A stretch of 64,000 nucleotides of DNA from a virus: IMG/VR virus record IMGVR_UViG_3300027808_000009, positions 1 to 64,000 of that record; one strand, 5' to 3'. Below, piece after piece: positions 3,008 through 56,435 of this stretch. How positions within the stretch are numbered: the first letter of the stretch is position 1; every line of letters begins with the position of its first letter. A program made the position numbers and the translations under genes. The notes under the pieces are model-generated. The model ran no database searches. It was not told the DNA's origin and saw nothing but the letters and a program-made list of their open reading frames with translations.

Positions 3008-3736
3008 TTATTTATATACTTCATCCCAGTGAGTTACTACATCACCTTTATCATTAACTTCACTCAATACTATCTCAGCATTTCTCAAATGATCTGGTCT
3101 AGCACCACAAGTAGTCTCTTCATTAGTTTTAAAACTCAAGATAACCTTGTTACCTTTTCTGAACATATAACCAATTGCATCTGCATTTGCGCAGATTAAA
3201 GACTTGATCTTACCAGTCAAATCAATATTTGCTGACATTACCATCTCACCTTTATCATCTACCTGCTTATCTTTGATATGCCCAGATAGAATAACGTGCT
3301 CTGCAAGAGTATCAACATAGTTTAAAATATCAAAAAATGCTTCTCTTATGTACAAATAACCTGCACCATTAGGTAAAGTAATTACATTATCACCGTCAAA
3401 GTTTTTACCCATTGGTGTTGCTCTGTACTTTTTTACTGCTAATGGAGCTACCATTTCTTCTAATGCAGTTACGGTATCAATAGTAATAAACTTATAAGGT
3501 TTACCTGCAGCTATTACTTGTTTACCAATCTCTAATAACTCTTTTAAATTATTAGCTTTTACTTTCAGTGCATCTACATAATCAGTCCCATTCTCCAAAT
3601 CAATGATTAAATTGTTATCCAACCCTGCAAAAGCGGTAGTTTTACCAGTCTTAGGCTTTGAATAGACAATTAATCTCTTTGGATTCACTCTTGTAGCACT
3701 TACTTTTTTAGTAGGCAATACTAATCCTTCACTCAT
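3008..3736 (-). CDS. AAA_24 / Sak4-like ATPase
   Basis: Walker A YSKPKTGKTT, IIDLENG, Walker B ITIDTVT, ILSGH, and ADAIGYM motifs. Confidence 0.85.
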   Translation of the reverse strand: MSEGLVLPTKKVSATRVNPKRLIVYSKPKTGKTTAFAGLDNNLIIDLENGTDYVDALKVKANNLKELLEIGKQVIAAGKPYKFITIDTVTALEEMVAPLAVKKYRATPMGKNFDGDNVITLPNGAGYLYIREAFFDILNYVDTLAEHVILSGHIKDKQVDDKGEMVMSANIDLTGKIKSLICANADAIGYMFRKGNKVILSFKTNEETTCGARPDHLRNAEIVLSEVNDKGDVVTHWDEVYK

Positions 3737-19020: not shown

Positions 19021-20126
19021 TAAAAAAGTACCTAACAATGGGGTATCTCATTGCTAGGATTAGTATATTTAGATCCCTCTTCAGGGTGAAGGTATAAGAC
19101 TTTACTGACCCCTGTAAAGAATATAGAGCCTCACATAATGCGTCCATTACATTACAATCTCTACACCTAGTGTGTTTTACACCTAAAACTTTCAACTTTC
19201 TTTAACGTTTCTGAGCATCTATGCTTATTTATGTGCACGGCATAGACTCTAAGTTATATAGTTCTCAAGGTTATAATCCCATACATAAGTTCAATATCTT
19301 ATGTTTTGACAGGGAAATGATGTACCTTCATTACACGATTTACACGTGCAGTATGATAACTTGAACTACTGTGATTGAAAGAAACTGGTGTCCTCAACAT
19401 CTTGGAAAGAGTTAAGTTTTTTATAAAAAATGGGAACACTATGGTAGTTCCCAATTCACCCTATGGCTTCACCCACCCTAATTACACACGTGTAATAACT
19501 GGTACTCCAAGAGTTTCCCCCCATAGTTGTTGTACTCTTACAAGGTTCTAATCCTTGATACATATCCCGTTACTACACTGATAGCCTTTTATTGACTGTC
19601 TTCATAACTTAAGGGTTTAACTAATAAGTTTAACCTGTTTCAGAGGGTAATGCAACTATTGCATAAGAGTAAAATCACAAGCCCTCTTCAAGTCCTGTTA
19701 AGGATACTGTTGAGATACTACTCTTGTGATAAATCCAGTAGTGTGGATATTTCCCTCTGTACTCAGTTGTAATAGTCATAGATTTTTAAAGTTTCTCAGG
19801 CTTTATCATCTATTTCTTATTGTTTATGAGGTTATATACCAAGTTCTTTACACGTAGTTGAGCTACATACTTAGTTCTTGTAATGTATATACACGCAACA
19901 GCCCTCAATCTGATCCTTGACCCACCTTTCATTGGTGTCTAACAGACTATTACAACTGTCTACCCTTGGGAAGTAGAAATGGTACATTAACGAAGGGCTT
20001 GATTACCCCTTCTGACCGTTTAGCAGGTTGAAGCTTGCTCCTTATAAATCCTTCCCGTGCACAGAACAAGAAACTGGGGAGACGTTGTTTCTACTTTAGT
20101 ACTCTCACAAGGTTGCAACCCTTGAA
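19021..20126 (-). ncRNA. candidate large structured non-coding RNA(s)
   Basis: About 1.1 kb without a convincing ORF and visibly more GC-rich than its flanks. Contains nested stems (19641-47/19753-59; 19674-81/19723-30; a perfect 14-bp stem 19764-77/19945-58), many local hairpins, and a terminator-like end near 19030-19060 whose G-U pair favours the minus strand. Confidence 0.55.
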
Positions 20127-20330
20127 TTACTTGCTTAGATGAGAGTAATTATCTTTAATCACTTGTCTTAATTCTTCATCTACCTTTCTAGTATATCTAA
20201 TACTATCAAAGAACATGTATGTTTTTAAGACTGTACCTATTTCAGGTAACTCAGCAGCAACTAATTGTTCTACTGTTTCAATACCTAATATATTAAGTAC
20301 TGTACTACTTCTTACTGTTAAGTCTTCCAT
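20127..20330 (-). CDS. stand-alone RNA polymerase alpha-CTD-like protein
   Basis: EDLTVRSSTVLNILGIETVEQLV...LKT...KVDEELRQVI aligns by eye to the alpha-CTD consensus LELTVRSANCLK..GI..IGDLV....LLKT..LGKKSL.EIK. Confidence 0.65.
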   Translation of the reverse strand: MEDLTVRSSTVLNILGIETVEQLVAAELPEIGTVLKTYMFFDSIRYTRKVDEELRQVIKDNYSHLSK

Positions 20331-20356
20331 TGTTTATATTTTTTAGTTGAATTAAA

Positions 20357-20442
20357 AACTACAATTCAGCATTCAGGAACCTTTAGATATCAATAAGGTA
20401 TTCCAACTGAGTTTTACAGTGTATCTTTGCTGAACTGTAGTT
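20357..20442 (-). ncRNA. 86-nt stem-loop element (small RNA or leader)
   Basis: 14-bp arms AACTACAGTTCAGC / GCTGAATTGTAGTT with one G-U pair on the minus strand, an inner GGAA-T-ACCTT/AAGGT-TCC stem, and a following T run. Confidence 0.4.
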
Positions 20443-20449
20443 AATGGTT

Positions 20450-20746
20450 TTATAAATTTTCAAAAATCTGGATACTATATACTGACCATTTAATGTTTAA
20501 GTTAATATATACCCATTTCATATAAGAAGGATGTAACTTACAAGCTTCTTCTACTGTAATATTAATTAGTGCAGGTTTATTACTAAACCAACATTTATCC
20601 CATGGTCTAGTTCTTCTTCTTGTACCATAGTTACCTTTATCATTTTTCATATCAAAGTCTTGAAACTCTGGTCTTGCCTTATACTTTATGTATCTAAGGT
20701 CTTGCTGAGGAGGTTGTGCTCCAAATGTCATTGTTGAGATTTTCAT
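20450..20746 (-). CDS. hypothetical protein (likely start 20746, not 20920)
   Basis: MKISTMTFG...PSYMKWV. The 5' extension in the ORF track is low-complexity AT-rich sequence. Confidence 0.55.
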   Translation of the reverse strand: MKISTMTFGAQPPQQDLRYIKYKARPEFQDFDMKNDKGNYGTRRRTRPWDKCWFSNKPALINITVEEACKLHPSYMKWVYINLNIKWSVYSIQIFENL

Positions 20747-21202
20747 AGTTGTATATTTTAGTTGAATTATTATTAAACCCGATTTAATGTCTATAATACT
20801 ATTACTCTTTATATAAGTAATACATAACATAATACTATAACTAGTGTATTTATAGTGTAAAGAGTATAGACTAGTGTATTTAGCTATATAATTTATTATA
20901 TGTATAGCTGTATCAGTCATTTAGCTGACCGACTTAAAGTGTTAGTTTAGGTGATAGTTTTTCTGTCAATCACATTCTCACCCTCTAACACGTATAATTT
21001 ATATATATACCCAAAAGTTAACTGACTGATTATCAATATCAAAGTCTACTTGTTACACACGGTGGAGACCGCTGTGTATAATAATCATATTGATTATGTA
21101 CTACGGGATAGTACTGTCAATTTGATTATAATGATATCAATATGCTGTTAATATATACTTAATGCATCTGACTGAGTATATATGTACTGTAATAACACAA
21201 TA

Positions 21203-21244
21203 AAAAACAGTATACTCACACCAATTAAGGCATAAGTATACTGT
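21203..21244 (-). terminator. intrinsic terminator closing the early cassette array
   Basis: ACAGTATACT...AGTATACTGT inverted repeat followed by a T run on the minus strand. Confidence 0.6.
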
Positions 21245-21253
21245 ATAAGGGGA

Positions 21254-21550
21254 CTAGAACTCTACATCTAGGCTTTTAGCCACAGGCTTGAAAGTCATAC
21301 TAGATACTTTCTCAGCACCTTGACCCGCATGGTGTAGCATCCAACTAGCCTCTCCGTCTTCAGGACTAAACCAACTAACTACTAAGTCATCAGATAGACT
21401 AGTAATATCATTAGCAATACGGAAAGTTATTCCCGTATCTGTTGTACCAAATAGTTTACCTGTCTTTGGGTTCTTCAATATCTCTATTGAAGATAGACCG
21501 TTAACAGATGCGAACTTGTTGATAGACTGTGTTTTTGAAAATGTGCTCAT
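21254..21550 (-). CDS. early protein, paralogue 1 (KNPKTG family)
   Basis: Tandem paralogue of 21662-21955. Shares FSKT.SI..FA, ILKNPKTG, and VSWFSPEDG.AS.MLH. Confidence 0.8.
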   Translation of the reverse strand: MSTFSKTQSINKFASVNGLSSIEILKNPKTGKLFGTTDTGITFRIANDITSLSDDLVVSWFSPEDGEASWMLHHAGQGAEKVSSMTFKPVAKSLDVEF

Positions 21551-21661
21551 AATAATTAATTTTTAGTGTTAAACAATTTATATCAATTTCAGTTCTAAAA
21601 TGGTAAAAGCTGCGTAGCAAAAAAATAATAAACCTCTACCAATCAAGGTAGAGGAATATAA

Positions 21662-21955
21662 TTAGAACTCGTGCAATGTAGCAGGAGCTTTTGCAAAGGA
21701 CATAGAAGATACAACCTCTGCACCCGCACCTTTCTTATGCAACATATAAGATGCATCACCGTCTTCAGGTGAAAACCAGGATACCTGCAAATCTGTAGTT
21801 AATTCTTGGATGTCTTTAGCAACACGGTACGTGTTACCTAAATCATCTACCAAGAAATTAGAACCTGTTTTAGGGTTCTTAAGGATATTCAACTCTGAAA
21901 TACCTTGTTTCTCTGCGAATGCAGAAATGCTAATTGTTTTTGAAAAACTGCTCAT
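21662..21955 (-). CDS. early protein, paralogue 2 (KNPKTG family)
   Basis: See paralogue 1. Confidence 0.8.
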   Translation of the reverse strand: MSSFSKTISISAFAEKQGISELNILKNPKTGSNFLVDDLGNTYRVAKDIQELTTDLQVSWFSPEDGDASYMLHKKGAGAEVVSSMSFAKAPATLHEF

Positions 21956-22055
21956 AACTCAAATTTTAAATAGTTAATAAATATATCAATGTCAGTTTTA
22001 AAATGGTTAAAGCTGACGCAGTCAAAAAAAAAAGAATGGGTATAACCCACTCTTG

Positions 22056-22232
22056 TTATTCATTATTACTGATATACTCACGCAATAAATGAACGTGACC
22101 CATTAGAGCATCGTGATATCCTTTAATGTAGCCAGTTTCAAATGGATCATTAGTAGTATCTATATGCGAAATCATTGACTTAGCATCATTTTCAAGATCA
22201 GCAATTATACTGTTTATAAGTTCTGTATTCAT
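22056..22232 (-). CDS. small early protein (58 aa, not in the ORF track)
   Basis: MNTELINSIIADLENDAKSMISHIDTTNDPFETGYIKGYHDALMGHVHLLREYISNNE. Has its own motif copy and terminator. Confidence 0.7.
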   Translation of the reverse strand: MNTELINSIIADLENDAKSMISHIDTTNDPFETGYIKGYHDALMGHVHLLREYISNNE

Positions 22233-22309
22233 AATCTTTAGTTTTAATTAATATTATTAATAGTTAAAAAATGGTAAAAAATAAAGGGGATGTTATTCCC
22301 CCTTAATAT

Positions 22310-22681
22310 TTATATGTCTTTAAACATAGCAACTAAGTCAGCATGGTCATCATTACCATTACTATTCTCTAACTTAGGTAACTTAGGTAAGTTAACGTCT
22401 TTACCTGAATATGCATACCAATCTATTGAACCACAACCTGAGCTTTTACTATAGGTCTCTATGACATATTTCTCAAGCATTTTCCATATATCATTACAAT
22501 ACATACCTGTTACTTTATGATATCCATCAATAGTAAGGCCATCAAATCTTGGTACATAACCCATAGTATTCCATGAGTAACCATCTTCAAGTATTCTAAC
22601 TTTTTCTGCAACAAATGTGATAACAGGAAAAGGTATAGTAGCTTCTACCTCAATCTTTTTTTTATACGTTATTGTTTTCAT
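22310..22681 (-). CDS. early hypothetical protein
   Basis: 123 aa, follows the motif copy at 22711. Confidence 0.7.
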   Translation of the reverse strand: MKTITYKKKIEVEATIPFPVITFVAEKVRILEDGYSWNTMGYVPRFDGLTIDGYHKVTGMYCNDIWKMLEKYVIETYSKSSGCGSIDWYAYSGKDVNLPKLPKLENSNGNDDHADLVAMFKDI

Positions 22682-22748
22682 AATCTTTAATTTAAATTAA
22701 TATTATTATTAGTTATAAAATGGTCCCCAAAGGGGTAAATAGTGTGCA

Positions 22749-22970
22749 TCATTTGACACACACTATTTTAAACACACCTTGAGTATATCCATTACTCATC
22801 AGTTGCTTCTTCTTCCAAAGGGCTAATGCCTTAGAAGGAAACACAAAACTCTCTAAGAGTCTTGTGTTATTGTGGTACTCAAGCCTGTACAACGGATATG
22901 ATTTTACTACCATCAATCTCAGTATATTCAGTGAACATATCAAAATAGTGGTTAGCATAATTATCCGCAT
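22749..22970 (-). CDS. early hypothetical protein (start probably internal)
   Basis: Overlaps 22879-23133. Second gene of its cassette. Confidence 0.45.
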   Translation of the reverse strand: MRIIMLTTILICSLNILRLMVVKSYPLYRLEYHNNTRLLESFVFPSKALALWKKKQLMSNGYTQGVFKIVCVK

Positions 22971-23133
22971 TCATACAACGGCAGGTAACTTTCTGCTCTT
23001 CAGGTGAACCATAGAATGAATATGTTAATTCACCCATAGTAAATGAACCCGCATATAACCAACCTCTCTTGATACCACGCATTAAATGTGTACTGTTTAA
23101 TGCTTTTTCCAATGCTAATCTAATCTCTTCCAT
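22879..23133 (-). CDS. early hypothetical protein
   Basis: 84 aa, follows the motif copy at 23152. Confidence 0.7.
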   Translation of the reverse strand: MEEIRLALEKALNSTHLMRGIKRGWLYAGSFTMGELTYSFYGSPEEQKVTCRCMNADNYANHYFDMFTEYTEIDGSKIISVVQA

Positions 23134-23193
23134 AATATATAATTTAATGACAGTTAAAAAATGGTTAAAAAAAGGGGGAATTACCCCCTATTG

Positions 23194-23517
23194 TTAAAAC
23201 AAACTAATCTCTGCTTGATTAAGTTCTTCCTGTATTTCATCAGTTACAGGTATGCTAAATACTATATGTCCTGAACATACGTCCATAACATTATCTTTAA
23301 CATAAAACCCAACACCTGAAGTACAACTGTCTCCATCATCAAGCAACATAACAGTACAAGAATAATGATCCCAACCTACATAATCTGTATCAATGAAGAT
23401 TGTACCTTCTTTGTATACTGTTTTATGTAGTGATTTAACCTCTCCTGTTACTGTTTCACCAAAGTTATCAGAACCTTGGTTAAATGCTTTTATAGCAATT
23501 TCACTTAAATTTTTCAT
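23194..23517 (-). CDS. acidic early hypothetical protein
   Basis: 107 aa, follows the motif copy at 23537. Confidence 0.7.
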   Translation of the reverse strand: MKNLSEIAIKAFNQGSDNFGETVTGEVKSLHKTVYKEGTIFIDTDYVGWDHYSCTVMLLDDGDSCTSGVGFYVKDNVMDVCSGHIVFSIPVTDEIQEELNQAEISLF

Positions 23518-23555
23518 AATAAATAGTTTTAATGACAGTTAAAAAATGGTTTATT

Positions 23556-23695
23556 AAAAAAAAGAATAACAAGTTAAACATAAAGCTCTCCTTTTTGGAA
23601 CTTTTTGCATCATTTCTCTACTTGACTTGCAAGCTTGTCAGTGCACCAAGGTGTACAAGCTTCTTGTAGAGAACAAACATTTAACTGTGTTATTC
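23556..23695 (-). ncRNA. candidate ~140-nt structured small RNA
   Basis: Occupies a whole cassette. The 5' and 3' ends pair (GAATAAC/GTTATTC and AGTTAAA/TTTAACT), there is an inner long hairpin (TTCTCTAC/GTAGAGAA, AAGCTTGT/ACAAGCTT), and it ends in U8. Confidence 0.65.
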
Positions 23696-23745
23696 AATAT
23701 GAGTTATAAAATGGTTGACTAAAAGAGAGATGACCTCTCCTTTCT

Positions 23746-23895
23746 TTAGAAAGGGAGATCATCATCATCACACGGATAAGTCATATCCGCTTGTTCTATC
23801 ATCCAAAGAGCAAAGGCTTCTTGCTCTTCAAAGATGAAGTCAGAGAGTTCTTGGTAGAACTCTCTTTCCATACGAGTGTATTCATCTTGTGTCAT
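23746..23895 (-). CDS. 49-aa acidic peptide ending DDDDLPF (SSB C-terminal-tail mimic; not in the ORF track)
   Basis: MTQDEYTRMEREFYQELSDFIFEEQEAFALWMIEQADMTYPCDDDDLPF, with 15 D/E against 2 R. Has its own motif copy (23920) and terminator. Confidence 0.75.
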   Translation of the reverse strand: MTQDEYTRMEREFYQELSDFIFEEQEAFALWMIEQADMTYPCDDDDLPF

Positions 23896-23955
23896 AATAT
23901 AAAGTATTAAGTTATAAGGAGTTATAAAATGGTAAAAAAAGGGGTATAATACCCC

Positions 23956-24114
23956 TTATTTAATCTTAACAAAGCCAAATTCTAACCATCTTTTAATAAA
24001 GTCAGTACTGTATGTATTTTTATCAGTAATAATCTCACCTGTAGTTCTATTGTTATTGGCTTTTATAATAACCTCTTCTCTGTCTTTAAAAACAAGTATA
24101 TTTCCTTTTTTCAT
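23956..24114 (-). CDS. small early protein (52 aa, not in the ORF track)
   Basis: MKKGNILVFKDREEVIIKANNNRTTGEIITDKNTYSTDFIKRWLEFGFVKIK. Follows the motif copy at 24134. Confidence 0.65.
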   Translation of the reverse strand: MKKGNILVFKDREEVIIKANNNRTTGEIITDKNTYSTDFIKRWLEFGFVKIK

Positions 24115-24175
24115 AATAATAAGTTTTAATTATAGTTATAAAATGGTGACAAAAAAAGGGGAATAATCCCCTTAA

Positions 24176-24322
24176 TTAATTTTCACTCCAAAACTCTAAT
24201 ATATAATTACCACATATATCTTTTCCCATTCCTCCATATAATTCATATAATTCCTCAACAAAATATTTTTCTCTATCTATTTCATTATTACATTCATCAT
24301 ATATAATTTTATTATACCACAT
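24176..24322 (-). CDS. small acidic early protein (likely start 24322)
   Basis: MWYNKIIYDEC...EFWSEN. The motif copy at 24353 lies inside the longer ORF-track call. Confidence 0.6.
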   Translation of the reverse strand: MWYNKIIYDECNNEIDREKYFVEELYELYGGMGKDICGNYILEFWSEN

Positions 24323-24409
24323 AATCTTTAAATTTAAGTTAATATTAATAACAGTTATAAGATGGTCACAAGAAAAAAACATAAGAGCCATTAGGCTCCT
24401 ATGTTGTTA

Positions 24410-24616
24410 TTAACTCCAACCTTTATACTTCTTCAAGTATTCAGGTGTATATTTTTCTGAGTCAGGGGTCCTAATGCCTCCGAACCAAAAGATAAATCCT
24501 ATTACACTGAAGCAAACGCACAGTGTTGGTAGCATCTCTAGGTATGCTTCCACAGCACCACCTAGAAATACACATGATACAAAGATCATGTATCTAAAGT
24601 AATTAGTATATTTCAT
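24410..24616 (-). CDS. early membrane protein
   Basis: Two hydrophobic helices. First gene of the minus arm. Confidence 0.7.
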   Translation of the reverse strand: MKYTNYFRYMIFVSCVFLGGAVEAYLEMLPTLCVCFSVIGFIFWFGGIRTPDSEKYTPEYLKKYKGWS

Positions 24617-24657
24617 AGCAATTAATTTTAATTAAAGTCAGTTCTAATATGGTCTAT

Positions 24658-24815
24658 CTTGCGTAGCAAGCATAGGGGGTACCACCTCCGGGCTGAGGGG
24701 GTGGGGGTGTTGTAGGGAGGGTCCACCTCCTTCTCTTACATACATCATCCCCAAATTCCGTAGTCCCTCTCTTAATGTATTTCACTCAGGAAGAATTACC
24801 GGGGAATGTTATCTG
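24658..24815. other. GC-rich island at the strand switch (possible genome terminus/packaging site or origin)
   Basis: GGGGGTACC, G runs, and a GGAGG/CCTCC hairpin within an otherwise AT-rich sequence, exactly between the divergent arms. Confidence 0.45.
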
Positions 24816-24928
24816 GTATCAGTAATTATATATATATTTGTACTGTATCATAAAAACTTATGTTAGGTAAGAAGATCCTCAGACTCCTGTCTGGGGATTT
24901 TGTTTTATATTTGTATTTTAAATATGTT

Positions 24929-25195
24929 ATGATGAAATTATATACAGAGAGACCAAGAACTATTGAGGCTATGCAATATGATGGTACAGAGAAAATGGCA
25001 ATTGAGATTGCTGGTATGAAAAACTTTGAAGGTATGCTAGATTATAAACAGAAAAAGTTTTCTACTTTATGGATTGAGATAGGGGGTAAAGAATTTAAAG
25101 TTGACCGGGGGGACTATCTTATACAAGACTGGGAAGAGCAGTTCTCTATAATGTCTGAAAAAATATTTGAAAAATTTTATAAAGAATTGGTATAA
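24929..25195 (+). CDS. conserved phage protein (IEAxQ...GDYxI family; likely start 24929)
   Basis: RPRTIEAMQYDG...VDRGDYLIQ...IMSEKIFEKFY pattern. Confidence 0.7.
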   Translation: MMKLYTERPRTIEAMQYDGTEKMAIEIAGMKNFEGMLDYKQKKFSTLWIEIGGKEFKVDRGDYLIQDWEEQFSIMSEKIFEKFYKELV

Positions 25196-25314
25196 AATAC
25201 TTATCTTTATATCCGTAATGTAGATGTTTACGGTTCATTTATTTTATTTAATTGATTGATGGTTATAAAGCTCTGAATTAAAAACTCAGGGCTTTGTTTT
25301 TTTAAAGAGATAGC

Positions 25315-26283
25315 ATGGCAGTATTTGATGGACAGTATAAAAAGATATTAGAAGAAATCTATTATGGAGGATATAAGTATCAGGATCCAAATAGAAAAGG
25401 AGTTGAGAGGATAGAGATATCCATGATCAATCTTTATTGCAGACCTAGTATTGGGTTTCCTGCATTGACTACTAAAGAGGTTTATTTTAAAGGAGCAATA
25501 GCTGAGTTGATATTCTTTATGTCTGGTTCTACTGATATAAGGAAGCTTTGGGAAATGGGTGTTAGATTCTGGGATAAGGATTGGGCACACTTCCATAACT
25601 ATTCAGAGGCTGCAGCAAATTATTTATATGAAGGTTGGAAATCAAATAAGGAAGACTACAAGGATGCATCTGTATCAAAAGTTTATGACATGGGTAAGAT
25701 CTATTCTCATCAGTGGAGAAACGCCAATGGAGTTGATCAGTTATATAAGCTTGTTTCTTCCATGATTAAAACTCCTATGTCAACATCATTAATCGTTAAC
25801 TCTTGGAATCCCGCAGATCTTCCTGATATGTGTTTGCCTCCGTGTCATTATTCTTTTCAGATTATATGTCAACCTGTAAAAGATACTTACACATTCAATC
25901 TTGTATGGAGTCAAAGGTCTACAGATTTTTTCTTGGGTACTCCCGTTAACATAATGTTCTATGCAACCCTTGCTCAAGTGTTAGAGATAATGACGGGATA
26001 TAAATGTGCAGCAGTTATTGGAGAGTTAAAGAATGTCCATATATATGATAACCAAATTGAGGTAGCTAAAGAGTTAATGTTTAGAGATCCTGAATTATAT
26101 GGAGAAAGTAAACTTGTAATTGATAAATCTAAGTTTAAACTTTTTTTAGATAATCCTTCAACTTTAAACTTTAATAGTGTAATAAATTCACTATCTTTAC
26201 AGGACTTTAGTTTGGTTGGCTATAACAGTTATCCAAAGTTGAAAGTAGAAATGTTAAGTTATAATAAAAAACAAGAATCATGA
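25315..26283 (+). CDS. thyA: thymidylate synthase
   Basis: FPALTTKEV, IYSHQWR, catalytic LPPCH, QRSTDFFLGTPVN, and HIYDNQ motifs. Confidence 0.95.
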   Translation: MAVFDGQYKKILEEIYYGGYKYQDPNRKGVERIEISMINLYCRPSIGFPALTTKEVYFKGAIAELIFFMSGSTDIRKLWEMGVRFWDKDWAHFHNYSEAAANYLYEGWKSNKEDYKDASVSKVYDMGKIYSHQWRNANGVDQLYKLVSSMIKTPMSTSLIVNSWNPADLPDMCLPPCHYSFQIICQPVKDTYTFNLVWSQRSTDFFLGTPVNIMFYATLAQVLEIMTGYKCAAVIGELKNVHIYDNQIEVAKELMFRDPELYGESKLVIDKSKFKLFLDNPSTLNFNSVINSLSLQDFSLVGYNSYPKLKVEMLSYNKKQES

Positions 26284-29242: not shown

Positions 29243-31144
29243 ATGTTAAATAATATAACAAACTATACTAACCTTATTAATAAAAGAAAGGTTAGAACAC
29301 TATTAGAAGCAACAGACTTGTTCACGGTAGGTGTAAGAGATGCAAACTTCTATGGTAATTACCAACCAGCATTAATAACTACAACTGATTTAGTTAGTAG
29401 TGTTGCTAGTTTATTACCTCCAACTACTCCTACATGGGGATCTATTATTGGTAACATTAATACTCAAGGTGATTTAATATCTTTATTAAACGCTAAACAG
29501 GATGATATTACATTAACTACTGTAGGATCATCTGGTGCAGCTACGTTAATTGGATCAACTTTAAATATTCCTAACTATGCTGGAGGATCCTTACCTTATT
29601 GGTTAGAATATGATGGTACAGATCTTACTATTTGGAATAACGGTAAAGGTAATATTGCAACTAATACTTCATATGGTCAATATGCCCTTAATAGTAATAC
29701 AACAGGATATAGTAATACTGCAGTTGGTGTATCAGCATTAAGAAATAATACTACAGGTGCCACTAATATTGCAGTAGGTTTTGAGGCATTAAAAAATAAT
29801 ATAACTGGAACTTTTAATGTTGCTATTGGTGAATCTTCATTAGCAAATAGTAATAATGCAGCATCACAAAATATTGGAATTGGTGCTTATTCTTTGTACG
29901 ATAATACAACTGGTTTTGATAATCTTGCAGTAGGTATAAATGCACTTAGAAATAATAATGCGGGTAGGCAAAATATTGCATTTGGTACTAATTCATTAGT
30001 AAATAATACAACGGGTATTAATAATATTAGTATAGGAACAACTTCATTAAATAATAATACAACTGGTCTAGGAAATATAGCAGTAGGAGTTAATTCTTTG
30101 TTTTATAATACAACTAATAGTGCTAATACTGCAATAGGTCATGAATCATTAAAAAATAATACAGCTGCATTAAATACAGCAGTCGGTTATCAATCATCTT
30201 TCTTTAATACATCTGGAACAGAAAATACTACAATAGGTTTTAGTTCAGGATTAAGTACAACTACAGGAAGTTATAATACTGCACTTGGTGCTTATTCATT
30301 ATATTATAATACTACGGGTAGTGAAAATGTAGCAATAGGTACATCAGCATTGTACAATAATACAACTGGTTTTTTTAATATTGGTTTAGGGATTTTATCA
30401 CTTGGAGCAACAACTACAGGATATGAAAATATTTCAATTGGTAATTTATCATTACGAAATAATACTACAGGTAATAATAATATAGCTGTAGGTCATCAAG
30501 CATTGTATAGAAATACAACAGGTAATACAAATATAGCAATTGGTAATTTCTCATTAGACTCAAATACAACAGGATTAGGTAATTCAGCATTAGGTCAGGG
30601 TTCATTAAGTGGTAATATTACAGGTAGTAATAACGTTGCTATTGGAGAAGCTGCAGCAGCATTTAATACTACTGGTAATAATAATACTAGTGTTGGTGTA
30701 CAGGCATTGTTATTTAATACAATAGGGAATGATAATACTGCTCTTGGAAAGTCTGCTATGTATTCAACAACTACAGGAATTGGCAATACAGCTATAGGTG
30801 CAGGAGCATTAAATAATAACACAATAGGACAACAAAATACAGCAATAGGTAGTGGAGCATTAACAAATAATATTACAGGAACTAATAACATTGCTATAGG
30901 AAATACAGCTGGAACAACAAATGTATCTGGTAATAATAATACTATGATTGGTGTTGCTACACTTTCAGGTAACTTTAGTGGTTCAGTAATATTAGGTTTT
31001 GGAGCAGCTGCTACAGCAGCTAATCAATTTTCAGTAGGATCAGCAGGAACAAATGCAGGTTCAGTAACATCAGAAGTTAACACTTCTTCAAATGTATGGA
31101 ATGTAGTAATAAATGGTGTAGCAAGAAAAATTTTATTAGCATAA
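29243..31144 (+). CDS. long fibre protein with many 14-aa NTA(I/V)G..AL..NTTG repeats
   Basis: Roughly 30 imperfect repeats, a divergent copy of the shared N-terminal module, and a C-terminus shared with 31169. Confidence 0.8.
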   Translation: MLNNITNYTNLINKRKVRTLLEATDLFTVGVRDANFYGNYQPALITTTDLVSSVASLLPPTTPTWGSIIGNINTQGDLISLLNAKQDDITLTTVGSSGAATLIGSTLNIPNYAGGSLPYWLEYDGTDLTIWNNGKGNIATNTSYGQYALNSNTTGYSNTAVGVSALRNNTTGATNIAVGFEALKNNITGTFNVAIGESSLANSNNAASQNIGIGAYSLYDNTTGFDNLAVGINALRNNNAGRQNIAFGTNSLVNNTTGINNISIGTTSLNNNTTGLGNIAVGVNSLFYNTTNSANTAIGHESLKNNTAALNTAVGYQSSFFNTSGTENTTIGFSSGLSTTTGSYNTALGAYSLYYNTTGSENVAIGTSALYNNTTGFFNIGLGILSLGATTTGYENISIGNLSLRNNTTGNNNIAVGHQALYRNTTGNTNIAIGNFSLDSNTTGLGNSALGQGSLSGNITGSNNVAIGEAAAAFNTTGNNNTSVGVQALLFNTIGNDNTALGKSAMYSTTTGIGNTAIGAGALNNNTIGQQNTAIGSGALTNNITGTNNIAIGNTAGTTNVSGNNNTMIGVATLSGNFSGSVILGFGAAATAANQFSVGSAGTNAGSVTSEVNTSSNVWNVVINGVARKILLA

Positions 31145-31168
31145 TAATTAACTTAAAAATAAATAAAA

Positions 31169-31981
31169 ATGGATATTTTAAATTTTATATCATGGATCAA
31201 AGGTAATCATGTAGTAAATACAGTTGATACCTCAAGAACACTTATACCATTAGGATTAAAAGATGCAAGAAGAGGTGATGGATATTTACCTGGTGCAATA
31301 TCAGTAACTGATTTCTTAGATTTGGTACCAGCTCCAGTTCCTCCAACTGATGCTTTAGGAAACACGTTTGTTGGTGAAGATGCTTTTGCAAATAATGTTA
31401 GTGGGTCAGCAAATGCTTTTTTTGGATGGAGAGCAGGTTATACAGGGACAAATCAAGTCTACAATACTGGAATTGGAAGAACTGCATTACATTCTAATAC
31501 AACAGGTTCTGAAAATACAGCAATTGGTGTTAATTCATCATACAATAATATAAATGGAATTGGTAATGCTTCAGTTGGAAATAATTCTTTGTATTTTAAT
31601 ATCAGTGGTAATAGTAATTCATGCTTAGGAATTTCAACATTATTTTACAACACAACTGGACAAAAAAATATAGCTATCGGTGAAAATTCATTATATGCAA
31701 ATACAACAGGTCAGTATAATATTGCAATCGGTGCATCTGCTGGAAACAGTAATACAACAGGTCAGTTTAATATTATGATAGGATCTGATATTGATAATCA
31801 AAATTATAATAATTGTATAATATTAGGAAAACAAGCTCAAGCAACAGCTAATAATCAATTTGTAGTAGGATCTTCTGGAACTAATGCAGGTACAATTGCT
31901 ACTGAAGCACTAACACCTACAGTATCTTGGACAGTAAAAATCAATGGTGTTGATTATAAAATACCATTACAAATAGCATAA
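31169..31981 (+). CDS. short fibre paralogue (MDILN module, NTAIG repeats)
   Basis: Same N-terminal module. C-terminus NQFVVGSSGTNAG...INGV..KI.L is shared with 29243. Confidence 0.8.
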   Translation: MDILNFISWIKGNHVVNTVDTSRTLIPLGLKDARRGDGYLPGAISVTDFLDLVPAPVPPTDALGNTFVGEDAFANNVSGSANAFFGWRAGYTGTNQVYNTGIGRTALHSNTTGSENTAIGVNSSYNNINGIGNASVGNNSLYFNISGNSNSCLGISTLFYNTTGQKNIAIGENSLYANTTGQYNIAIGASAGNSNTTGQFNIMIGSDIDNQNYNNCIILGKQAQATANNQFVVGSSGTNAGTIATEALTPTVSWTVKINGVDYKIPLQIA

Positions 31982-56057: not shown

Positions 56058-56435
56058 ATGGCAACTACTAATAGAGCAGTTAAAACATCTTGCAAAAATA
56101 CTAAAGTAAGAACAGCTGCAGGTGCATGTGCTCCTGAAAGAAAACCTATGATGAAATCTGGTGGAACTAGTCCATTTGGTATTCTATCTATTATAGCTGG
56201 TATAGATAATAATCCTGGTAAATCTAAAGCAGATAGAATCGCTGGTGCAAAAATGAACAATAAGACAATGAAAGCTGGAGGTACTACACATCCAGGTTTC
56301 AAATCTGTACAATCTAAGATTGCTGCTAAACAAGGTGTAAGTAAACAAGCTGCTGGAGCTATACTAGCTTCATCAACTAGAAAAGCTAGTGCTAAAGCTA
56401 AATCTGCTAATCCTAGACTTAAAAAAGTAAAATAA
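56058..56435 (+). CDS. basic protein with MKSGG and MKAGG
   Basis: Also contains the common phage motif GFKSVQSKIAAKQGVS...AGAILASSTRKAS. Confidence 0.75.
   Translation: MATTNRAVKTSCKNTKVRTAAGACAPERKPMMKSGGTSPFGILSIIAGIDNNPGKSKADRIAGAKMNNKTMKAGGTTHPGFKSVQSKIAAKQGVSKQAAGAILASSTRKASAKAKSANPRLKKVK

Follow-up and report, generated by a model that had tools for sequence, protein, structure and literature searches.

A uniform 14-nt motif, probably a phage-specific promoter, heads each unit of a cassette array in an uncultured freshwater crAss-like phage

Array anatomy

What reads the 14-nt motif that recurs ahead of a row of mini-genes where the leftward (replication-gene) arm of an uncultured freshwater crAss-like phage begins? 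A preliminary description of the 64,000-nt stretch analyzed here (the window; positions 1 to 64,000 of IMG/VR record IMGVR_UViG_3300027808_000009) had proposed an array of self-contained terminator-promoter-gene cassettes served by a virion-delivered RNA polymerase. The positions of the motif pattern, terminators and ORFs show that the array of terminator-motif-gene units is real. We think it probable that these are 11 autonomous cassettes, each with a phage-specific promoter and a terminator, and that the promoter is read by a phage-encoded factor and not by host sigma-A.

The array spans ~3.1 kb of the minus strand and consists of 11 units, each made of a terminator hairpin, the 14-mer (minus strand ACCATnTTnnAACT; searched for as AGTTHWAADATGGT) and a mini-gene. 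Eleven exact copies of the 14-mer lie within 21591-24653, all in one orientation and all where the preliminary description had placed them, against a chance expectation of 0.04 and at most one copy in shuffled sequences. Beyond the array, the whole 117,919-bp genome holds zero further copies, and the motif is missing from the replication genes downstream. The features of the array and of the divergent junction beside it are:

24833..24913, plus strand: two host-type TATATTTG boxes (24833-24840 and 24906-24913) at the head of the rightward arm
24872-24901, plus strand: hairpin and T run between these two boxes
24668..24725, no strand assigned: C-rich conserved element at the divergent junction, directly upstream of the first motif
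24658..24670, minus strand: mini-hairpin with 5-bp stem and 3-nt loop, 4 nt upstream of the first motif
24378..24653, minus strand: unit 1; motif 24640-24653, 68-aa two-segment hydrophobic protein 24410-24616, terminator 24378-24405
24156..24366, minus strand: unit 2; motif 24353-24366, 48-aa acidic protein 24176-24322, terminator 24156-24173
23939..24147, minus strand: unit 3; motif 24134-24147, 52-aa protein 23956-24114, terminator 23939-23957
23721..23933, minus strand: unit 4; motif 23920-23933, 49-aa acidic peptide 23746-23895, 10-bp hairpin 23721-23743
23551..23715, minus strand: unit 5; motif 23702-23715, ORF-less 151-nt unit with a T8 run at its end
23172..23550, minus strand: unit 6; motif 23537-23550, 107-aa acidic protein 23194-23517, terminator 23172-23189
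22725..23165, minus strand: unit 7; motif 23152-23165, 84-aa protein 22879-23133, 14-bp hairpin 22737-22768, 4-bp GC hairpin 22725-22735
22282..22724, minus strand: unit 8; motif 22711-22724, 123-aa protein 22310-22681, terminator 22282-22305
22032..22275, minus strand: unit 9; motif 22262-22275, 58-aa protein 22056-22232, terminator 22032-22054
21633..22007, minus strand: unit 10; mini-hairpin 22013-22025, motif 21994-22007, 97-aa protein 21662-21955, terminator 21633-21654
21207..21604, minus strand: unit 11; mini-hairpin 21610-21620, motif 21591-21604, 98-aa protein 21254-21550, 16-bp terminator 21207-21244

On the gene (minus) strand, a GC-rich hairpin with a T tract precedes 10 of the 11 motifs, the motif following 0-12 nt downstream (terminator scan: 24 sites, 1.8 expected). 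A hairpin plus U tract had been described before every copy; the first copy is the exception and follows the 5-bp tri-loop mini-hairpin. The spacing from the motif end to the ATG is narrow, as had been noted, and measures 18-40 nt rather than 19-41 nt, motifs heading ORF-less units excepted. The leaders share an AT-rich box ~10-17 nt upstream of the ATG, and a purine stands directly 3' of the motif in 45 of 50 distinct instances of this motif type (V1). The 14-mer is non-palindromic and strictly strand-specific. The combined module of promoter-like motif and terminator stem-loop is thus repeated between the genes, ahead of ORFans. The motif is not a signal for translation, since it stands at the head of ORF-less units as well.

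Cargo of the units

The ten cargo proteins gave no match above noise in Pfam or PHROGs, which leaves the earlier suggestion of an anti-defence function unsupported; presumably the mini-genes serve host takeover. Most are mutually unrelated, the proteins of units 10 and 11 being paralogues (59% identity). The unit 6 protein is a singleton among the compared arrays, whereas unit 3 recurs at 98% identity in the relative G002. The only functional hint comes from the unit 4 peptide, whose C-terminus, DDDDLPF, resembles an SSB tip and is retained in G002 and L021. Unit 5 has no ORF of at least 25 aa (its sole mini-ORF has 20 codons), and its 151 nt fold with an MFE of -37.3 kcal/mol (z = -2.8). Rfam at a permissive threshold left unit 5 unmatched and gave nothing credible in 19500-25500 or in L022 9100-9700.

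Homologues of the unit 11 protein (family c1) were found in related phage metagenome contigs only, and none in five more partial genomes. AlphaFold predicts a small beta-barrel and a disordered tail (pLDDT 77). The best Foldseek match in the PDB had an E of 0.085, and the VIA-wide comparison reached a Z of 3.8 at most; a PDB profile search and an Atlas search returned nothing informative. Since the many OB-fold matches of the model were all far below significance, an SSB-like role of c1 is only a lead.

Concerted switching of the motif in relatives

Relatives have the same layout with other 14-mers at orthologous sites, and at least eight motif types were distinguished. Near-identical relatives carry a different 14-mer at every copy, and a uniform 14-mer is also found in relatives down to 35-45% polymerase identity. 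Within-genome uniformity thus goes together with a few positions switched in all copies among relatives, and because every copy is switched in close relatives, the 14-mer behaves as a phage-specific signal. The 58-aa cassette of unit 9 illustrates this. In the sister genome G001 the protein is 97% identical and the DNA 89% over 312 nt, and leader, gene and terminator are retained despite a swap of both flanking motifs at positions 1, 5, 6 and 8. In c1-cassette orthologues from 17 contigs, the upstream mini-hairpin and the downstream leader are likewise kept, and the block between them is hypervariable. Most variants share the 3' end A/T-A-C-T followed by a purine; the V3 type is without the common ACT end, an observation that counts against our best explanation.

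The motif search by k-mer clustering initially gave coding artefacts (TTTACCA and similar), and a locality filter was then applied. Megablast found no GenBank phage that matches 20000-26000, and ThyA, used as an anchor, had no match in a set of 20 more distant genomes. When the viral collection was scanned for the V2 14-mer, almost all matches were single chance ones, and no array was recognised in G004, G007 or G017.

That such a signal should be a by-product of tandem duplication or a functionless selfish repeat seems to us very improbable: units 10 and 11 are paralogous and some intergenic modules near-identical, but the cargo is mostly unrelated while the 14-mer is invariant, and relatives have a different, equally uniform 14-mer at the same positions.

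Host-type promoters and the giant polymerase

The Bacteroidota sigma-A promoter consensus consists of TTTG at -33 and TAnnTTTG at -7. A sigma-70-type scan found 27 sites against 27.5 in shuffles, and the TAnnTTTG box is absent from all 11 units. Exact TATATTTG boxes do exist elsewhere, ahead of plus-strand genes at 24833, 27323, 40943 and 66587. The earlier remark that the motif does not resemble the host consensus is correct. In the mechanism that we favour, the intrinsic terminator (GC-rich hairpin and T run) would stop transcription arriving from upstream, and a strand-specific 14-nt promoter directly after it, with its first 8 nt conferring specificity, would start transcription through an 18-40 nt AT-rich leader into a mini-gene or small RNA. 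The 14-mer would thus mark the transcription start site, the earlier placing of the start ~6-8 nt downstream of it being a guess, and the position of the array suggests early expression. The reader would be a phage-encoded, fast-evolving specificity determinant distinct from the host sigma-A holoenzyme, most likely a giant RNA polymerase of the gp66 type or else a protein partner encoded in the injected block, acting immediately after ejection.

Such a polymerase gene lies outside the window, as had been presumed, at genome 90735-103085 (4116 aa, DFDVD at residue 2317). Its product is a gp66 homologue with DFDxD (tblastn against phi14:2 g066, E 3e-18), and by analogy with phi14:2 it is probably packaged in the virion. 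It is the sole polymerase-like gene found and is of the crAss DFDxD kind; the search for a T7-like polymerase (PF00940) gave no match, its control also matching nowhere.

We screened 143 ORFs for tracking of motif type, defined as likeness to the same-motif G002 with identity at least 20 points lower in the other-motif G001 and G008. Only ten ORFs track. They comprise the block of injected proteins at 78538-106378, one basic virion protein, two of the cargo genes and three small ORFs. For the polymerase, identity is 92% with same-motif G002 and 56% where the motif differs, with the opposite trend for ThyA (84% with the same motif, 95% with the other). Motif type and injected-protein block co-segregate in the G000/G001/G002/G008 set, which amounts to essentially one informative mosaic trio. 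In the V5/V6 clade motif and polymerase do not correspond one-to-one: the V5 core is common to G013 and G011, whose polymerases are 47% identical, while G012, at 56%, has a different motif. No protein of this clade follows motif type. The proposal of a virion-polymerase promoter thus gains from the phage-specific behaviour of the signal and from the presence of a giant gp66-type gene, and loses from the imperfect correspondence in this second clade. Judged from these sequence comparisons, it is plausible that the virion polymerase reads the motif.

Tri-loop mini-hairpins with covarying stems of 3-6 bp stand ahead of 3 of the 11 motifs (units 1, 10 and 11) and also occur in relatives, 4-13 nt upstream of a separate 14-mer; most units are without one. 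The stem ahead of the first motif covaries among relatives, with a TNC loop on the gene (minus) strand, that is, a template-strand loop G-N-A, closed by C:G. The neighbouring C-rich element is 81-83% identical in G001 and G003 and also occurs in L022, G008, G009 and G022; its fold is not significant. A more specific version of our explanation, which we hold tentatively and at somewhat less than even chance, is that the 14-mer is the promoter of the crAss two-barrel virion RNA polymerase. The at least eight switching specificity classes would keep co-infecting relatives from reading each other's immediate-early genes, and the G-N-A tri-loop (or the upstream terminator hairpin) would provide locally melted DNA, in convergence with N4.

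The strongest alternative, which we regard as unlikely, is that host core polymerase reads the motif with a phage adaptor or sigma-like factor, perhaps unrecognisable by sequence, the array then being a delayed class. T4 gp55, which serves single-box late promoters, is a model for it. The lone AT-rich 14-nt box with no upstream element resembles such single-box phage promoters, and host polymerase is used by phi14:2 for middle and late genes. Several small proteins, such as the 125-aa basic protein encoded at 56058-56435, co-vary with motif type as well, but the co-varying proteins are virion or cargo proteins and not early regulators. Furthermore, the genome has no sigma-70 region 2 domain (the control worked), and the first gene of the rightward arm, preceded by a host-type box, tracks the general genome phylogeny and not motif type.

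Cassette shuffling

The cassettes themselves are exchanged among relatives. Arrays range from 3 to 14 units, with conserved ends and a shuffled middle. Family c2 (unit 1) heads the arrays of V1 and V2 relatives and is the second unit in L022. Families c9 and c16 stand in opposite order in G000 and G003: c16 (unit 8) follows c9 in this phage and precedes it in G003. A 215-nt module (22678-22891) recurs at 97.7% identity in G002 between unrelated genes, and L022 has a V2 array containing one cassette with a retained V1 motif, which would be silent there, barring cross-recognition or read-through; this cassette, too, speaks against our best explanation. Cassette number and order thus vary, and cassette order is not invariant, in agreement with the earlier proposal of gain and loss through repeat homology; the sequence comparisons support the repeated intergenic modules as the joints of exchange. 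In the cassette model the regulatory module would double as short homology for recombination, and its repetition would let relatives acquire, drop and rearrange cassettes between a constant head (the small membrane protein) and a constant tail (the ~100-aa beta-barrel protein, then ORF-less units). The Sak4-like annealing protein encoded at 3008-3736 is enough for homology-driven shuffling.

The same variation, with its joints in the repeated modules, would also fit a protein-binding site with no promoter role, either a shut-off operator or a recombinase crossover site like attC in integrons, and co-evolution with a phage protein would explain the switching too. We nevertheless consider this reading improbable: the genome encodes no tyrosine or serine recombinase (the controls worked), neither an attC-like palindromic site nor an integrase gene was found, the 14-mer being non-palindromic and strand-specific, and shuffling already has a sufficient agent in the Sak4-like protein. 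An operator would still require a promoter, and no host-type one fits in the 18-40 nt before the ATG.

No better placed is a role of the motif in RNA, as a processing or cleavage site or as a stability or translation leader within a longer read-through transcript, which we give a slim chance. The motif does lie between hairpin and coding region, a frequent location of processing sites, and the leaders have their common AT-rich box. But strong terminators with T runs stand ahead of nearly every copy, ORF-less units are headed by the motif too, the host translation apparatus cannot account for an all-copy switch between near-identical phages, and no co-varying phage nuclease was identified.

Significance and comparison with known systems

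With phage-specific promoter and terminator cassettes as the favoured explanation, the clade supplies a sharp, short candidate signal for the injected polymerase together with natural specificity mutants: at least eight variants in otherwise conserved contexts, including a genome pair that differs at four motif positions. This makes polymerase recognition accessible to simple experiments. The arrays also show the reshuffling of these phages' presumed first-expressed mini-genes and reveal a conserved core: the membrane protein at the head, the beta-barrel protein at the tail, small RNAs and a putative SSB-tip mimic. Our literature search found no paper on such a promoter or on the recognition signal of the crAss-like injected polymerase, and a 2023 review of Crassvirales leaves promoters unmentioned.

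Integron cassettes are promoterless, carry a palindromic attC at their end and depend on an integrase. The array resembles them as a row of small exchangeable, mostly single-gene cassettes split by a repeated site, but here each cassette has its own candidate start signal and a terminator, the site is non-palindromic and there is no recombinase gene.

Early 5' ends have been mapped in a single crAss-like phage, phi14:2 (Drobysheva et al., bioRxiv 10.1101/2020.03.07.982082). Its polymerase was seen to act on single-stranded DNA only, gp66 also transcribes the replication genes, and host polymerase transcribes middle and late genes (bioRxiv 10.1101/2020.03.07.982082). The two phages share a homologous DFDxD giant protein, and host-type promoters occur elsewhere in our genome. 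The early transcripts of phi14:2 showed no shared upstream motif (bioRxiv 10.1101/2020.03.07.982082), which counts against our best explanation; here the candidate motif is very sharp, and the replication genes are without it.

N4 injects a T7-like virion polymerase whose promoter is a hairpin of 5-7 bp with a 3-nt loop, centred at -11 and stabilised by a sheared G:A pair in the loop (PMC4496689). As in N4, a few short early units at the genome edge would be transcribed by an injected giant polymerase, and a subset of units has the same loop type (template-strand G-N-A closed by C:G). The hairpin differs in lying 4-13 nt upstream of a separate 14-mer and in only 3 of 11 units.

The promoters of T7, T3 and SP6 are contiguous and phage-specific, with a specificity block of few positions and a common initiation-proximal part (PMC4496689). 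The 14-mer is likewise uniform within a genome, differs at few positions between related phages and has a common 3' part. However, the one polymerase-like gene found in this phage belongs to the crAss two-barrel (DFDxD) type and is not T7-like, the motif has 14 nt against 23, its match with the polymerase is only partial, and its promoter role is a candidate one.

The PeSL cassettes of the T4-type phages RB49 and phi1 carry a module of early promoter and terminator stem-loop before small ORFans (Arbiol et al. 2010, PMC2839356). The modules lie in a plastic region, where recombination between them leads to the shuffling, loss and replacement of genes among close relatives. The promoters follow the host sigma-70 consensus, and host polymerase reads them (PMC2839356). 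Our array is similar in its repeated promoter-like and terminator module before ORFans, with the joints of shuffling in the modules. It differs in its single 14-mer, which does not resemble the Bacteroidota consensus and changes in every copy between near-identical phages.

Anatomy of the array

Exact matches to the degenerate 14-mer number 11 in the window, all in a single orientation, where dinucleotide shuffles lead one to expect 0.04, and no other copy was found across the entire 117,919-bp source record, which is rated complete and of which the window is the initial 64 kb. Read on the minus strand, which carries the array genes, the motif is ACCATnTTnnAACT.

Starts of the 14-mer (exact matches to the degenerate pattern)
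21591, 21994, 22262, 22711, 23152, 23537, 23702, 23920, 24134, 24353, 24640

Ten of the 11 motifs follow a GC-rich hairpin plus T run by 0-12 nt, and copy 1, at the 24640 end, is preceded only by a 5-bp tri-loop mini-hairpin. A terminator scan returned 24 terminator-like sites versus 1.8 expected. The distance from motif to ATG is 18-40 nt in 10 units; unit 5 (23551-23715) carries no ORF of at least 25 codons and comprises 151 nt with a fold z of -2.8. The preliminary description had reported 11 recurrent 14-mers placed after a hairpin and T tract and before an ATG; all 11 were matched at the positions claimed, and the array is confirmed as real and non-random. One further stretch adjoins it:

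20747-21206 (minus): 460-nt ORF-poor stretch past the last terminator, with homology to the ORF-less units that end the arrays of relatives, and 77% identical to the related genome G001; it lacks the 14-mer here, and the 14-mer stands at its head in G001, L022, G008, G012 and G013

Mini-hairpins occur 4-13 nt 5' of the motif in units 1, 10 and 11, and in relatives also in c1 or c3 cargo units, terminal RNA units and first units.

Mini-hairpins in the window (GC-rich, 3-nt loop)
24658-24670
22013-22025
21610-21620

Their stems covary, with more than 12 stem sequences among 26 distinct versions, 22 of which have a C:G closure and 18 a T-N-C loop, that is, G-N-A on the template strand. This loop type is like that of the N4 promoter hairpin, which owes its unusual stability to a G-N-A tri-loop containing a sheared G:A pair (PMC4496689); we treat this likeness as a lead, not as evidence. 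At the divergent junction of some relatives there is also a conserved, structured-looking non-coding insert of ~150 nt (L022 9430-9600, G008 24890-25030 and a piece in G009 at ~107840-107880), which is absent from the window and for which no Rfam match was found.

Motif types and their switching among relatives

Relatives were collected via the adjacent ThyA-like gene, the polymerase and the c1 cargo protein. Their units, too, are built in the order terminator, 14-mer, leader, mini-gene, and the 14-mer itself is lineage-dependent and uniform inside each genome.

Motif types, with the genomes (G) and contigs (L) that carry them
V1: ACCATTTTATAACT (first base A or T in G003); window, G002, L021, L023, L025, L009
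V2: TCCAACTCATAACT; G001, L013, L022, L026
V3: TCTAACCCTTAGCT; L016, L027-L031, and G022 nearly so
V5: TACAGCTTTTTACT; G011, G013, G014, L343, L347
V6: TACTGTGTnnTACT; G012
V7: TTCAGCTCnnAACT; G008
V8: T-rich 14-mer with CACT end; G009, L334, L338

Additional types were found 5' of c1 orthologues. Variation between types falls in the first eight positions, with an A/T-A-C-T end in most types, and a purine directly follows the motif in 45 of 50 distinct V1 instances. A separate conserved 14-mer was noted downstream of the arrays:

~20900-20913 (minus): 14-mer starting TACAGCT, also in L009, L022, L029 and L016; found downstream of V1, V2 and V3 arrays, and identical to the V5 promoter core of other lineages

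This match could be chance or a relic, or the 14-mer could belong to a second class of promoter.

Switching is seen most directly at unit 9, whose 58-aa protein is 97% identical in G001 within DNA that is 89% identical over 312 nt. Pairwise alignment shows the leader, gene, terminator and next leader kept, with both flanking 14-mers changed at positions 1, 5, 6 and 8; G001 has no V1 and five V2 copies, and the window genome 11 and none. Likewise, 5' of c1 orthologues in 17 contigs, the mini-hairpin and leader are kept and the intervening block is hypervariable. The replication proteins of motif-switched phages are 91-100% identical, and host promoters could not change in this way between such phages. 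Because the motif has switched between phages this similar, its reader must, judging from these comparisons, be phage-encoded.

Candidate readers of the motif

The preliminary description placed the polymerase gene outside the window, and it lies at genome 90735-103085 as a 4116-aa ORF with DFDVD. This ORF matches phi14:2 g066, annotated as a catalytic RNA polymerase subunit, and other crAss-like phages (~24% identity, E 3e-18); the phage is an environmental crAss-like phage.

All 143 ORFs were compared with those of G001 (V2), G008 (V7), G002 (V1) and G003 (V1-like). Ten of them resemble their G002 counterparts but lose 20 points or more of identity in G001 as well as in G008: the block 78538-106378, in which the polymerase lies; a basic virion protein of 125 aa (56058-56435); two cargo genes of the array; and three small ORFs, two of them missing in V1-like G003. 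Best-segment identity of the polymerase is 92% with G002 versus 56% with G001, and whole-length identity is 83% with G002, 45% with G001 and 43% with G008; ThyA shows the opposite trend (84% with G002 versus 95% with G001). This co-variation would fit a virion-delivered reader. The association between polymerase and motif was drawn from one mosaic trio plus G008, and a second clade (G011, G012, G013 and G014) weakens the apparent link. There the V5 pair G011/G014 has polymerases 83% identical, identity is 47% for G013 (V5) and 56% for G012 (V6), and the polymerase core of another V5 contig shares 68% identity with G011 and 65% with G012; no protein tracking motif type was found in that clade. 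Polymerase identity and motif type do not correspond one-to-one there; specificity would be confined to a small part of the polymerase, if the polymerase is the reader.

An alternative candidate for an injected motif-binding protein is the basic virion protein:

56058-56435 (plus): 125-aa basic virion-type protein; identity 90% in G002, 80% in G003, 40% in G001 and 0% in G008

On the present comparisons, the injected polymerase appears the likeliest motif reader.

Cassette gain, loss and exchange

Arrays range from 3 to 14 units among genomes. The usual head is c2, a small two-segment hydrophobic protein, and the end consists of a ~100-aa protein (c1, or c3 in other lineages) and ORF-less units; the middle differs among relatives.

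Cargo order (c, protein family; x, singleton)
Window genome: c2-c6-c7-c8-RNA-x-c9-c16-c17-c1-c1
G002/L021: c6-c7-c8, then seven other families
G003: c16 before c9
G001: c2-c24-c17-c3-RNA

Cassette gain and loss with non-invariant order had been proposed, and both number and order do vary among relatives. Cargo families are common to different motif types. A 215-nt module at 22678-22891 (3' UTR, hairpins, motif and leader) is 97.7% identical in G002, with the flanking genes on both sides unrelated. The array of L022 is of type V2 but includes a cassette that has kept a V1 motif, and the cargo of this cassette, c23, also occurs in V1-like G003; therefore the cassette moved along with its own start signal. 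PeSL (promoter-early stem-loop) cassettes of T4-type phages show the same module-based exchange behaviour (PMC2839356). Together, the module shared between unrelated genes, the L022 cassette and the PeSL-like behaviour place the exchange joints in the repeated modules.

Cargo proteins

No array cargo protein had a match in PHROGs or Pfam. The 49-aa peptide of unit 4 (23746-23895, minus) contains 15 acidic residues and has a DDDDLPF end that is kept in G002 and L021. Bacterial SSB recruits partners by its C-terminal tip, which this ending resembles, and the peptide is possibly a decoy for SSB-binding host enzymes. Members of the c1 family are confined to related contigs; the predicted structure has a disordered tail attached to a small beta-barrel, and structure searches with c1 gave OB-fold rows only, all sub-threshold.

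Genome context and host-type promoters

On the same strand, 3' of the array, lie ParB-like, helicase, DnaB-like, Sak4-like annealing and primase genes, and the rightward arm runs from a ThyA-like gene and a kinase to the structural genes. The motif had been described as unlike the host TAnnTTTG consensus, and this holds: no TATATTTG-type box (Bacteroidota -7 type) fits within the array units, and exact boxes stand ahead of plus-strand genes at 24833, 27323, 40943 and 66587, with an additional one at 24906. A sigma-70-type promoter scan gave as many sites as shuffles. Searches of the genome found no sigma-70 region 2 and no tyrosine or serine recombinase, with all search controls positive.

Other elements in the window
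24833-24913 (plus): two TATATTTG boxes, the second at 24906, on either side of a 13-bp hairpin with its T run (24872-24901)
24668-24725: C-rich element adjoining the first promoter upstream
29696-31758 (plus): 633-aa tail-spike-like structural gene with the 8-mer AATACAAC 11 times

The first could yield a ~60-nt RNA or act as an attenuator ahead of the first rightward gene, and from its two-box and hairpin layout that gene probably starts at the ATG near 24926 rather than at 24860. The C-rich element has no significant fold and is kept in G001, G003, L022, G008, G009 and G022, although the neighbouring promoter type differs between genomes. The recurrence of AATACAAC indicates internal coding repeats.

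Comparison with known systems

In phi14:2, early transcripts made by gp66 have no detectable common upstream motif, and middle promoters are host-like (10.1101/2020.03.07.982082). A 2023 Crassvirales review does not mention promoters, and we found no published account of such arrays or of such a promoter in crAss-like phages. The array is best explained as terminator-insulated units under a phage-specific promoter, in which the block that sets specificity changes from one close relative to another. It resembles the PeSL cassettes of T4-type phages in being built of exchangeable cassettes with their own regulatory module, but PeSL promoters are host sigma-70 promoters, whereas the array motif is phage-specific; in its putative promoter specificity classes it resembles T7, T3 and SP6.
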